From: Ostreococcus lucimarinus
Taxonomy: Eukaryota
Direction: 5' to 3' (one strand)
Assembly: GCA_000092065.1 (NCBI GenBank)
Contig: CP000581.1
Length of the DNA: 64,000 nucleotides
Shown here: piece by piece, positions 3,360 through 19,643 of the stretch
How positions within the stretch are numbered: the first letter of the stretch is position 1
Layout: the number at the start of each line of letters is the position of its first letter
Notes under the pieces: generated by a model
Seen by the model: the letters and a program-made list of their open reading frames with translations, nothing else
Databases searched by the model: none
What the model was told of the DNA's origin: nothing
Position numbers and translations under genes: made by a program

Positions 3360-4567
3360 TGCCGCCGAAGAAGACGTTCACCGTGGCGACGAAGGAGGAC
3401 CTGGAACTGCGACGAAAGTATGAATTGCTGCGACAAAAGAAAGAGGCGCGCGCGCGGCGCGAGGAAGCCAAGGCGCGCGAGGACGCGCGCGTGAAGGGCG
3501 CGAGGATGCGCGCGGCGAGCGGCGCGCGGGGCGACGCGCGAGGGACGACGCGCGAGGGGGCGGAATCGAGCGGGCGCGGACGCGACGGCGGCGGCGGACG
3601 CGGAGGACGCGGCGGACGAGACGACGCGAGGGGAAACGCGCGCGTCGGAGGAGGGGGGGGGGACGAGAGGGCGGCGGAGGAACCGGTGGATCCCGCGCAC
3701 GCGCGCGCGAAGGCGATTCTGGCGGGATTGCATAAGAAGAAAGAGCCCGGCGTGGCGGCGTTGAACGCGCGGGCGGCGGCGACGACGGCGGCGGAGAAGG
3801 AATCGGAGGAGGATAAGAAGCCGAAGTTGGTGTTTACGATGGGGAAACGCGCGCCGAAGGTTGCTCCGGTGGTTGTGAAGGCGGCGGAGGAGGAGACGTT
3901 CGGGTACGCGGATACCGTGGTCGGGTACGCGTCGACGGAGACGAAGGCGCCGGAGCCCGAGGCGGCGCCCGAGGCGGAGGCGAAGCCTGAACCGGAGGCG
4001 GAACCCGTGGAAGAGGCACCGGCGCCCGTCGAAGAGGACGCGTCGCAGGGCAAGAAGGAGGTGAAGCGACCGAAGCGACCGGGTTTGCTCTCTCCTGGAA
4101 TCGCGAAACGACAGAAGATGAACACGCCTACGCCGTTCCCGGAAGCCACCGACGGCGTGGGGGAGAGGACGGACAAGGGCGAGCGCGAGATCTTCATCAG
4201 CGACTTACCGGACGGTTGCACGATCGAGAGTCTATCGTTGGCGTGCTATCGCTACGGCCGCGTCAACAGCTGTCGCGTGATCGAGAGAAAGCACTTCGGT
4301 TTCGTCACCTTTGCGGATTCGGCGTCGGCGGAGAAAATCGTAAACGCCGCCATCGCGCACATGAACGATCCCGACAAAGAGCCAGTGATCGTGGACGGGC
4401 GCGTCGTTATGGTTGAATACAGCGTGCAGGCCAAAGGCGACAAGCCTTTCGGAGATGAGATCCGCCAACGCGCGTTGGAGGAACTCGAACGCATTCGCGA
4501 CGGCGAAATAGTCGACGACGGCGGAGACGTCGTCAAGCGTGACATGCTCGTGTACGACGATATTTAG
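3360..4567 (+). CDS. RRM-domain RNA-binding protein with an RG/RD/KE-rich N-terminal half
   Basis: Internal ATG (MPPKKTFTVATKEDLELRRKYELLRQKK). The C-terminal RRM is REIFISDLPDGCTIESLSLACYRYGRVNSCRVIERKHFGFVTFADSASAEKIV. The listed ORF upstream of 3360 is Arg-rich antisense noise. Confidence 0.5.
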
Positions 4568-13300: not shown

Positions 13301-13999
13301 CTATTCTCCGGAAACCGGAGACGTCTCCGCGGGTCGGGTTTCGATGACTTCATCAATGAGTCCAAACTCCTTAGCGTCTTCAGGAGTCATGAACGTATCA
13401 CGCTCCAGAGTCACGCCGATCGAGTCGAAATTTTGCTTGGTATGTTTCATGTAAATCTGAACGAGCTTCTGGCGAACGTTCAATATCTCTTGCGCGTGAA
13501 TGGCGATATCGCTCGCCTGCCCCGAGGCCCCTCCGCTCGGTTGATGCAACATCACGCGCGAATGCGGTAAACTTCTCCTTTGACCCGGTTCGCCCGCCGC
13601 GAGCAACAGCGACCCCATACTACTCGCCTGTCCCACGCACAGCGTGTGTATGGGCGGCGACACGTACTGCATGGTGTCATAAATCCCCAATCCAGCCGTC
13701 ACGCTTCCTCCCGGGGAGTTGATGTACATCCAAATCGGCTGCGTCGGGCTCACGCTCTCGAGAAACAGCAGCTGCGCCACCGTGAGCGAGGACACGTTGT
13801 CGTCGATCGGTCCGTTCACGAAAACGATGCGCTCTTTGAGCAGGCGCGAGTAGATGTCGAACACGCGCTCGCCACGGTTCGTTTGCTCGAGCACCATCGG
13901 CACGAGGGCGTACGTTCGCGGGTGCGCGATGCGCGATGGGTGCGAAGACGTGCGCGATATGAGCGCGCGAGAAGCACCACGAAGCGCGTTTCGAAACAT
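13301..13999 (-). CDS. clpP: ATP-dependent Clp protease proteolytic subunit (nuclear-encoded, organellar presequence)
   Basis: [67 protein letters not shown] and the catalytic region [32 protein letters not shown]. Confidence 0.85.
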
Positions 14000-14128: not shown

Positions 14129-15583
14129 CTAGTCGAGTTGAATGGCGGCGATGCGCTGAACGATGTCGTCGAATAATAAACGACTGCCGCGCTCGCCGAG
14201 CAGCCCGGCGGCGAGCGCGGCGAGCGCGGCGATGGGATGGACGCCGTCGACGCCGTCGTGCCTCGCGCACACCTCCTCCAACACGGCGCCGAACGCTCGC
14301 GCTTCGTTGAGTTCTATCGTTCGTGCGTTCGATGAATCTCTTTCGTAGAACCAGGCGGCGCCGAAATCGCCGAGTTTTGCGCGTGGTTCGATGCCTGGAG
14401 ATTCTTTGACGTGCAAAATGTTGTGCGCGTAGACGTCGCCGTGGACGACGCCCATCGCGTGCAACTCTCGAAGCGCCGAACCAACGTCTCGCGCGACAGC
14501 CATGATTTCTTTCGCCGTGAATCGAACATCGTCATCGTACGTATCTCTCGCCACTGTATCAAAGCTCGGAGGTTTCCCGAGGTCCTTCCACGAAGCGTGG
14601 TCAAGATATTGCATCACCAAGCCTCGCGAATCGCCGCGTTGAAATCGCGCGATTGTCTTGATCGTACCCTCGCTCTTAATCGTCGCCGCGAGCACCGATG
14701 CCGTCATCTCATCTTCCGGGCGCCCGTCGCTTGTCTTTGCGGCGTTGTTGTACACCTTCACCGCCACGGTCTCGCCGTTCCATCGTCCCGCATACACGGC
14801 GCCCGACGCGCCTTTACCGAGCGGCTCGGCGTCCTCGGCCACGCCGAGCTCGGACCAATCCACCGTCACCACGTCTGCAGAATTTGCACGTGTCTTTGCT
14901 TTATCTCCGATCGTATCCGTCGCGGGATTCGCGGCGGCGGCGAACCAACTCAGTCGAGGCGACTCCAATATCCAACTCGGAAACGTTTCAAAGCGATTGT
15001 CCGCCAGTCTGAGTAACTCTAAATTCTTCAACTCCCGCATGCTCTCCGGCAACGCGCGCAACTTGTTCCCCGCTAACATCAACTTTCGCATCGGCGCGCA
15101 CCGTCCGAGCGACGCCGGCAACCGTTCGATTTGATTATCACTCAAAATCAACCACCCAAGACTCGGCGCCAGCGCGTCCTCGCTCACTTCTCGCACCGCG
15201 CACGCTTTGAACGAAACCATAAACAACTCTGGCAACCGTCCCAGCACCTCGGGCACGCGCTCGAACGCGTTCCCCAGAAAGAACGCCCGCTTCAATTTGC
15301 GACAATTCTCGATGCTCTCCGGCAACGTTCGCAGCGCGTTCCCGCCCGCGTTGAGAAACTCCAGGCGCGTCAGTCGCCCGACGGCGTCCGGCAGTTCGGT
15401 GAGCCCGCAGTTAGACACGTCCAGCTCCGTCGCGTCGTCCAGCGCGCCCGCGCGCAAGTCTTCGAGCACGCGCTCGCACTTCGTCGCCGCGTCGCCGCTC
15501 GCGCGCGCGTACGACACGACGCGCTTCGGCGCGACGACATCGATATCCACTCCGCCATCCTTCGTCGACGTTCCGGCGCCCAT
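14129..15583 (-). CDS. leucine-rich-repeat serine/threonine protein kinase, N-myristoylation-type start MGAGTS
   Basis: LRRs (LTELPDAVGRLTRLEFLNAGGNALRTLP...) followed by a kinase domain: GKGASGAVYAGRW, VAVKVY, HGDVYAHNIL, LGDFG. The listed ORF continues about 230 codons upstream with no stop. That extension is Arg/Ala-rich and overlaps the MinC-like gene, so the MGAGTS ATG is preferred. Confidence 0.55.
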   Translation of the reverse strand: MGAGTSTKDGGVDIDVVAPKRVVSYARASGDAATKCERVLEDLRAGALDDATELDVSNCGLTELPDAVGRLTRLEFLNAGGNALRTLPESIENCRKLKRAFFLGNAFERVPEVLGRLPELFMVSFKACAVREVSEDALAPSLGWLILSDNQIERLPASLGRCAPMRKLMLAGNKLRALPESMRELKNLELLRLADNRFETFPSWILESPRLSWFAAAANPATDTIGDKAKTRANSADVVTVDWSELGVAEDAEPLGKGASGAVYAGRWNGETVAVKVYNNAAKTSDGRPEDEMTASVLAATIKSEGTIKTIARFQRGDSRGLVMQYLDHASWKDLGKPPSFDTVARDTYDDDVRFTAKEIMAVARDVGSALRELHAMGVVHGDVYAHNILHVKESPGIEPRAKLGDFGAAWFYERDSSNARTIELNEARAFGAVLEEVCARHDGVDGVHPIAALAALAAGLLGERGSRLLFDDIVQRIAAIQLD

Positions 15584-15725
15584 CGCGCGCGGTGCGCGCG
15601 CGCGGCGCGCGACGAACGCGACGCACAGAGCCGCGAGCGCGAGCGCGAGCGATCGTCGCGCGCGCGGCGGCGCGCGGCGCGACGACACCGCGCGCGACGT
15701 GACGCCGAGCGCCACTGTGTGACGG

Positions 15726-16544
15726 ATGCGCGCGGCGGCGGCCCGCGTCGCCTCCGGGACGCGCGCGCGCGCGTCGCCGCGGTGTCGCGCGCGGGCGGCC
15801 TCGACGCCGCCGCGCGCGCCCGCGCTCGTGATTTCGCGCACGGTGCGCGCTGGAGAGCGCGTCGAACACGACGGCGATGTGTTGGTGTGCGGGGACGTCG
15901 AGCGGGACGGTGCGGTGCGCGCGACGCGCGGCGACGTCACCGTCTGGGGCTCGCTCTTGGGTGAAGTCGAGGCTTGCGAACCAGACGCGTGCGTGCGGGC
16001 GATCGACATGCGGCCGGCGGCGCTGCGCGTCGGCGGCGCGCGGTGGCGGTTGTCGACGGCGAAGGACGCGACTGGACGGCCGGCGGTCGCGCGCGCGGCG
16101 GCGGACGGCGTGGATGTGGTCGTATGCGATGAAAACGTCGGAGGAGATTGCTCGACGTCGACGAGCGTGCGGCGATCGAGTCTGTTGACGGGCGCGTACA
16201 TCGGCGCCGTCGGTTTGGCGTTGCTCGTCGCGCCCGCGGCGACGTTTTCCATCCTGTTTAACGCCGCAGACATCACGAGCGCGTGGATTCGCGTGTTTGG
16301 AGTGCTTTGCGTGACGTTTGGGGCGTATTACGTCGGCACGCCGCTGTACGAACTTCGAGGTTTCGGCGCCGAATCGTTTTACCGCAGCACCGTTCTCGGT
16401 CGAGCCTTTGTCTTCGCCTCGCTCTGCGTCTTGGCCGCGTTCGAGCGGCGCGCCAGGGTCGGTTTAATCGCACTCGGCGTCATAAACGCTTTGAGTGCGT
16501 CTGTCATGCATCGCGCGCTCGAGCGTGGGCGGGATCGCGAGTGA
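15726..16544 (+). CDS. MinC C-terminal-domain (beta-helix) protein fused to a C-terminal polytopic membrane domain, with a transit-peptide-like N-terminus
   Basis: RTVRAGERVEHDGDVLVCGDVERDGAVRATRGDVTVWGSLLGEVEACEPDACVRAIDMRPAALRV aligns position-by-position with the MinC_C consensus (RSGQ..EAEGDLVVLGDVNPGAEVVAGGNI.VMGSLRG.AHAG...I.ALDF.PTQLRI). It is followed by 3-4 predicted TM helices. ATG start. Confidence 0.45.
   Translation: MRAAAARVASGTRARASPRCRARAASTPPRAPALVISRTVRAGERVEHDGDVLVCGDVERDGAVRATRGDVTVWGSLLGEVEACEPDACVRAIDMRPAALRVGGARWRLSTAKDATGRPAVARAAADGVDVVVCDENVGGDCSTSTSVRRSSLLTGAYIGAVGLALLVAPAATFSILFNAADITSAWIRVFGVLCVTFGAYYVGTPLYELRGFGAESFYRSTVLGRAFVFASLCVLAAFERRARVGLIALGVINALSASVMHRALERGRDRE

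Positions 16545-16695: not shown

Positions 16696-18468
<1,773 letters not shown>

Positions 18469-18665: not shown

Positions 18666-19643
<978 letters not shown>

Follow-up and report, generated by a model that had tools for sequence, protein, structure and literature searches.

A predicted membrane-anchored MinC C-domain protein of Ostreococcus lucimarinus and its relatives in the green lineage

The Min system of bacteria provides a described counterpart of the gene considered here. In bacterial MinC, the N-terminal domain blocks FtsZ polymerisation, whereas the C-terminal beta-helix is the half responsible for dimerisation, for binding of MinD, and for binding of the FtsZ tail. In land plants and chlorophytes, an analogue is ARC3, an FtsZ-like protein with MORN repeats that is unrelated to MinC in sequence, soluble, stromal, and recruited by PARC6. 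The subject of the present analysis is a MinC-like gene in a stretch of 64,000 nucleotides from contig CP000581.1 of Ostreococcus lucimarinus (assembly GCA_000092065.1), hereafter called the window. A preliminary description, made from the letters of this DNA alone, had assigned to the gene a nuclear-encoded product with a transit-peptide-like leader, a MinC C-terminal domain (MinC_C), and several membrane helices, and had regarded such an algal protein as unusual.

MinC homologues of the green lineage are mentioned in several publications. A homologue of MinC has been retained in certain algal lineages and in Physcomitrella (PMC5855766), and a MinC-like sequence is noted in a moss genome (PMC2995336, citing Yang et al. 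2008). A Chlamydomonas MinC accession, XP_001692722, has been tabulated (PMC4641359). ARC3 has been proposed as a negative regulator of plastid Z-ring assembly acting with MinD and MinE (PMC13650779); the moss lacks ARC3, and its MinC-like gene may compensate for this loss (PMC10030945). In the plastid-division literature that we searched, neither the missing N-domain nor the membrane domain of the green MinC-like proteins is mentioned, and we found there no functional study of any such protein.

The protein encoded in the window is identical over 272 of 272 residues to XP_001415470.1 of O. lucimarinus CCE9901, annotated as 'predicted protein'. UniProt entry A4RQY4 is the same protein under the name 'Septum formation inhibitor MinC C-terminal domain-containing protein', and the O. 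tauri orthologue is labelled 'septum formation inhibitor MinC'. The open reading frame (ORF) is the O. lucimarinus copy of a green-lineage 'MinC-like' family that has been catalogued before, and it is a gene of the reference genome. For this window alone, the finding is ordinary, as the gene was already annotated. The suggestion that MinC_C would be an unusual find in an alga did not survive: the entry carried the MinC_C label before, the moss protein has the same architecture, and the premise was wrong because reviews already record MinC homologues in algae and moss.

The beta-helix is recognisable both by sequence and by fold. In the Pfam scan, PF03775 covered aa 35-127 with an E-value of 3.5e-13, and its 49.9 bits exceed the gathering score, which is 33.2. 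Among PDB entries, the best match by sequence was the C-domain of Aquifex aeolicus MinC (4v02_C, from the MinC:MinD complex 4v02; E 2.9e-13), and proteobacterial MinC was marginal in the same search (6riq; E 0.19). An AlphaFold2 model built with 14 homologues has the beta-helix at aa 34-134, with a predicted local distance difference test score (pLDDT) of about 90. Superposition of the model on 4v02, 6riq, and 5xdm yielded target-normalised TM-scores of 0.78-0.85, and on 1hf2 of 0.43-0.45, with a root mean square deviation (rmsd) of 1.8-2.5 Å overall; chains that hold the C-domain alone gave the scores of 0.78-0.85, at an rmsd of 1.8-2.0 Å. Foldseek matched 4v02_D with a target-normalised TM-score of 0.79 and an rmsd of 1.8 Å, at 36% identity to the Aquifex MinC. 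These sequence and fold matches bear out the assignment made in the preliminary description.

Other beta-helix families had also been named as possible better fits. Bactofilin (DUF583) and the LbetaH hexapeptide fold are ruled out, being absent from the Pfam scan even at E≤10, and the comparison of profile models favours MinC_C. FapA, with an E-value of 0.28, is the sole further beta-solenoid family in that scan.

The absence of the N-terminal MinC domain, likewise proposed at the outset, is confirmed. The beta-helix is preceded by merely 33 unconserved residues, and the ORF is closed directly upstream of its start. Because the intergenic region is only about 142 bp long and a divergent gene lies beyond it, there is no space for an upstream exon encoding this domain. 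The NCBIfam models of full-length MinC match by their C-terminal part or third only, scoring 32-47 bits against cut-offs of 95-486; for instance, TIGR01222 scored 45 with a cut-off of 95. The leader itself has a characteristic composition: its first 35 residues contain 8 arginines, 12 alanines, and no aspartate or glutamate, for a net charge of +8. The pLDDT is below 50 over aa 1-26, and both the length and the sequence of the leader vary among orthologues (alignment A1). Such a leader resembles a cleavable presequence, in agreement with the transit-peptide-like segment described earlier, and may serve in targeting to an organelle.

The C-terminal half of the protein is a predicted membrane domain. 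AlphaFold2 places four helices at aa 145-175, 185-210, 216-239, and 241-271, and the domain modelled alone from a deeper alignment has a pLDDT of 96.6 and a predicted TM-score (pTM) of 0.87. The Kyte-Doolittle profile contains three strong peaks, the second helix being weaker; the multi-helix membrane domain of the preliminary description is hence found again as four predicted helices. No Pfam family matches the domain significantly, either in the window protein or in the stand-alone four-helix proteins that were also scanned. An exhaustive profile search retrieved 413 representative proteins matching it at E≤1e-3. Mean column identity is 68% for the four-helix domain and 47% for the beta-helix, the latter value being computed over a wider set.

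The orientation of the protein is suggested by its charges. In a set of 113 family members, the stretch ahead of helix 1 carries on average 1.25 lysines and arginines and the C-terminal tail 1.18, with acidic residues almost nil there, and the loop between helices 1 and 2 is acidic. Given these loop charges, the positive-inside rule, and the number of helices, the beta-helix would lie on the cytoplasm-equivalent, that is, stromal side, so that a stroma-facing topology is predicted. The stroma is the compartment of plastid FtsZ and MinD and corresponds to the cytoplasmic side of the inner envelope and thylakoid membranes.

The combination of the two domains is not restricted to Ostreococcus. 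Fourteen orthologues align over the full length of the 272-aa protein (A1), and MinC_C is followed by the four-helix domain in all 14 proteins of the first homology search. Among the best 150 proteins of the four-helix search, 35 of the 148 newly found ones have MinC_C upstream, as detected with a local beta-helix hidden Markov model (HMM). The fusion is carried by O. tauri, metagenomic Mamiellophyceae-like relatives, Pycnococcus provasolii (where it is annotated as MinC), Cymbomonas, Myrmecia (Trebouxiophyceae), Mesostigma, Chara braunii, Physcomitrium patens, and Euglena. In a pairwise comparison, the window protein and P. patens XP_024395735.1 are collinear across both domains (E 1e-35). 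Since the fusion is kept collinear in chlorophytes and streptophytes, it predates the split of these lineages, and its conservation across homologues means that both halves have been under purifying selection since before that split.

The named carriers are all plastid-bearing, and all but Diacronema have a green plastid. The Euglena gracilis transcript (P0031; eukprot EG_transcript_14748) is consistent with transfer of the gene alongside the secondary green plastid. A word-indexed search with another member, P0044, returned only that protein itself and one Euglena transcript. The fusion is also found in a protein attributed to the haptophyte Diacronema lutheri, or Pavlova (eukprot; P0281, in the cluster of P0014), which could be a green-derived gene or a contaminant. 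A few further proteins, P0037 from Chlorokybus together with P0042, P0049, and P0068, begin with 'MEPS..IA..V..GPE', which corresponds to the last strands of MinC_C. Probably, these gene models are truncated versions of the fusion, from genomes rich in introns.

The four-helix domain also exists without MinC_C. In many green algae it stands behind presequence-like leaders, an example being provided by Chlamydomonas incerta KAG2423440.1 (P0062, 212 aa). P0020 (259 aa) contains two tandem copies, and P0184 comes from the transcriptome of the dinoflagellate Yihiella; both lack MinC_C and likewise have presequence-like leaders. Another protein of this kind, P0021 (234 aa), resembles Mamiellophyceae in composition and shares 55% identity with the four-helix domain encoded in the window, for which reason Ostreococcus-like algae may hold a second, MinC-less paralogue. 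Within the window, tblastn detected no second copy of either domain.

Bacteria possess stand-alone four-helix proteins of about 117-128 aa (P0138, P0186, P0188, and P0189). The cluster of P0138 includes TLU82229.1 of Chlorobium sp., and that of P0186 includes NTW81944.1 of Chlorobiaceae, both from metagenome-assembled genomes. When the four-helix alignment A3 was used as the query, a word-indexed protein search produced 19 matches, including bacterial members of about 120 aa and one dinoflagellate member. In the loci that carry P0189 (L005-L007; gene at 4001-4387), the order of genes is conserved: a class II aminoacyl-tRNA synthetase, the four-helix gene, an HbpS-like gene, a LOG/lysine-decarboxylase-like gene, and a ClpB-type AAA+ chaperone.

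The motif RSGQ of E. coli MinC (R133, S134) is required for binding of MinD. Its counterpart in the window protein is RAGE, which retains R and G and has A in place of S and E in place of Q. In a common profile alignment, R and G are kept by 80 of 80 sampled bacterial MinCs, and 49 of these have exactly RSGQ. The green-lineage proteins differ: R is kept in approximately 18 of 42, and the motif is highly variable. Close orthologues of the window protein have an invariant G43 and an almost invariant E44 (A1). The form R-x-G-Q is found in the slowly evolving sequences of Pycnococcus, Mesostigma, and Cymbomonas. The window protein shares RAGE with three relatives, and P0007 from the O. tauri cluster has RGGE; GAGE, SAGE, VAGT, or EKGT occur in more distant metagenomic relatives. 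Substitution of S by A in this motif appears to be tolerated, because, in the alignment from the PDB search, RAGQ is found in Aquifex MinC, whose crystal structure with MinD is 4v02.

By comparison of these sequences, the bacterial constraint on RSGQ is relaxed in the green lineage, and the erosion would fit a protein that, having a membrane anchor, depends less on MinD. Three points about the green-lineage members seem little described: they lack the FtsZ-inhibiting N-domain, all of them have the four-helix domain, and their RSGQ motif is eroded. Another residue, E. coli R172, is implicated in the interaction with the FtsZ tail. Its counterpart was set aside as evidence, as this position seems, from bacterial sequences judged by eye, to be unconserved in Terrabacteria too.

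The origin of the beta-helix was approached through a search of bacterial loci, one genome per species, with four slowly evolving green sequences as the query (A5). The bacterial sample was biased to the pattern [IVL]AGGD[VI][VIM]VW, and the 80 best loci were taken. They belong to Chloroflexota (mainly Anaerolineae), Cyanobacteria, and a few Firmicutes and Aquificae, and are 46-57% identical to the slowly evolving green members; none of the 80 is proteobacterial. A neighbour-joining tree built from 83 columns left after trimming joins the green sequences to the cyanobacterial clade as its sister group. Monophyly of Cyanobacteria is supported by 99 of 100 bootstrap replicates, and the grouping with the green sequences by 59 of 100. 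The comparison with cyanobacterial MinC suggested in the preliminary description thus recovers the sister grouping, with weak bootstrap support. The MinC_C part is probably of cyanobacterial, that is, plastid-ancestor descent.

The gene lies in a eukaryotic neighbourhood (Table 1). It is nuclear, as was first described: its product equals that of the O. lucimarinus nuclear gene, and its neighbours encode beta-tubulin, ClpP, a kinase with leucine-rich repeats (LRR), and a FabG-like protein. The adjoining beta-tubulin gene is split by introns, which confirms the eukaryotic nuclear context. The product of the divergent LRR-kinase gene begins with MGAGTS and matches the N-myristoylation consensus (M-G-x-x-x-S/T). 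The far longer ORF called mechanically at 14129-16276, which runs across the MinC-like gene on the other strand, is an artefact of high GC content.

Table 1. Coordinates of the MinC-like gene, its parts, and its neighbours in the window
Feature	Position	Strand	Details and basis
MinC-like protein coding sequence	15726..16544	+	single exon, complete, ATG to TGA, 272 aa plus stop; ORF list
N-terminal leader, aa 1-33	15726..15824	+	R/A/S/T-rich, no acidic residues, predicted disordered, unconserved
MinC C-terminal beta-helix domain (PF03775), aa 34-134	15825..16127	+	Pfam, PDB sequence search, Foldseek
R41-A42-G43-E44, counterpart of bacterial MinC 'RSGQ'	15846..15857	+	hmmalign with E. coli MinC and 80 bacterial MinCs
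Linker, low confidence, aa 135-144	16128..16157	+	pLDDT <50 at aa 137-144; variable in A1
Four-helix membrane domain (predicted), aa 145-271, motif WIRVFGVLCxTF	16158..16538	+	conserved; no Pfam family
Intergenic region, about 142 bp, common to the MinC-like gene and the divergent LRR-kinase gene	15584..15725	.	gene calls on identical TARA scaffold; sequence
LRR and protein-kinase gene, divergent neighbour	14129-15583	-	484 aa
ClpP gene	13301-13999	-	
Beta-tubulin gene	16843-18468	+	short introns; first exon from about 16843; main exon 17281-18468
FabG-like short-chain reductase gene	18774-19643	+	

These observations can be combined into a scenario that we consider somewhat more probable than not, namely, that the protein is a remnant of MinC tethered to a plastid membrane so that its beta-helix faces the stroma, which modulates placement of the FtsZ ring and in which the anchor wholly or partly replaces recruitment by MinD. 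We infer the plastid location, the topology, the binding partners, and the role in division from the sequences. The weak sister relation to cyanobacterial MinC and the near-confinement of the family to hosts with green plastids agree with plastid targeting and a part in division. The leader would bring the protein into the plastid, and the four-helix bundle would hold it in the inner envelope or thylakoid membrane with the beta-helix turned to the stroma, as the charges suggest. There, the beta-helix may dimerise in the manner of bacterial MinC, whose fold it shares, and may bind MinD, the C-terminal tail of FtsZ, or both, by extension from the activities of the bacterial C-domain. A permanent anchor would make recruitment by MinD dispensable, and the eroded RSGQ would be explained by this replacement. 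Because the N-domain is absent, the canonical blocking of polymerisation is not possible, and any effect on the Z ring would be exerted via the C-domain. In this respect, Shen and Lutkenhaus reportedly found in 2009 that, in E. coli, the MinC C-domain acts jointly with MinD to inhibit division, and does so through binding to the C-terminal tail of FtsZ.

A bolder version, which we put forward tentatively and hold to be rather doubtful, is a self-anchoring plastid MinC that arose in the green lineage when the beta-helix was joined to the four-helix bundle and the FtsZ-depolymerising N-domain was given up. It would be independent of MinD or less dependent on it, at which the eroded RSGQ hints, and would either antagonise FtsZ only by the C-domain mechanism of tail binding and anti-bundling or serve as a fixed membrane landmark. 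If true, such a self-anchoring MinC would be a variant of the Min system undescribed in bacteria, and would explain placement of the Z ring in lineages without ARC3, such as moss.

Several considerations weigh against a MinC remnant acting in plastid division. Erosion of RSGQ could equally signal a loss of the Min function. As the four-helix domain stands alone in many algae and in Chlorobiaceae, it may be the part with the main function. The cyanobacterial affinity comes from a short domain with 83 columns and bacteria chosen by pattern, at a bootstrap value of 59%, and R-rich leaders of such kind cannot tell plastid from mitochondrion. The searched literature contained no localisation, interaction, or mutant data for any family member.

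Some of these considerations converge on a different explanation, in which the beta-helix is now a mere dimerisation or oligomerisation module of a four-helix protein unrelated to FtsZ and MinD and engaged, for example, in plastid membrane organisation or transport; its likeness to MinC would then be a matter of history alone. Several facts can be read in favour of this explanation: the four-helix half is the better conserved one in the comparison of column identities given above, it occurs without MinC_C in many algal proteins and in bacterial ones about 120 aa long, RSGQ is degenerate in most green members, and the FtsZ-inhibiting domain is lost. Facing it are the purifying selection on both halves and the retention of the fusion from chlorophytes to streptophytes, and we judge this explanation unlikely.

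Still less probable are two other origins of the architecture. The protein could belong to a mitochondrial Min system, as in some stramenopiles and other protists; an R-rich leader could suit either organelle, and mitochondrial MinC- and MinD-like proteins are described in Nannochloropsis and Ectocarpus (PMC3499364). However, those proteins cluster with non-cyanobacterial prokaryotes (PMC3499364), whereas the green MinC-like family groups with Cyanobacteria, as noted at 59% bootstrap. Proteobacteria are missing among the 80 nearest bacterial relatives, the proteobacterial structure 6riq is far behind Aquifex in the PDB search, and all named organisms of the family bear plastids, including Euglena with its secondary green one. 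A mitochondrial role is, in sum, very unlikely. Finally, the architecture could be an artefact, with two adjacent genes merged or a wrong start hiding an exon for the N-domain, and a GC-rich genome does yield many long spurious ORFs. The same ORF, without interruption, nevertheless recurs in at least 16 independent contigs as well as in the reference genome, the fusion is collinear from Ostreococcus to moss, and the start lies only about 142 bp from the divergent neighbour gene; this origin is scarcely credible.

In summary, the preliminary description was partly supported: its structural reading was right, and its claim to novelty was overstated. What remains worthwhile is the composite picture, drawn from sequence comparison, of a green-lineage MinC that is reduced to the C-domain, carries a predicted membrane anchor, and is decaying in its MinD-binding motif, which offers a testable hypothesis about rewiring of the Min system. 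The question of how the Z ring is positioned without canonical MinC is usually answered by its replacement with ARC3, whereas much of the green lineage kept a half of MinC with a predicted membrane anchor; it is retained in prasinophytes, trebouxiophytes, early streptophytes, Chara, a moss, and Euglena. If active in division, the MinC-like protein would mark an intermediate stage at which the Min system was being rewired as the organelle evolved. The four-helix domain is of interest by itself, as an uncharacterised family without a Pfam model that is shared with green sulfur bacteria.

Compared with known systems, the window protein shares with bacterial and cyanobacterial MinC the homologous right-handed C-terminal beta-helix and retains R and G of the motif. 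Cyanobacterial MinC, of about 265 aa, has no membrane segment, and its beta-helix follows an N-domain stretch of about 150 aa; the window protein has no N-domain. Canonical MinC is soluble and is recruited to the membrane by MinD; in contrast, the window protein is predicted to be an integral membrane protein with four C-terminal helices. Its likeness to ARC3 would be one of analogy, both having been proposed as negative regulators of the Z ring. The mitochondrial MinC and MinD of stramenopiles (PMC3499364) are likewise nuclear-encoded Min proteins kept for an organelle of bacterial descent, but they are predicted to be mitochondrial and cluster outside Cyanobacteria, whereas the green family groups with Cyanobacteria and occurs in plastid-bearing hosts, nearly all of them green. 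The nearest described relative is the 'MinC-like' protein of Physcomitrium, which belongs to the same family and has no essential difference from the window protein, and the orthologues of Pycnococcus and O. tauri had been named MinC before.
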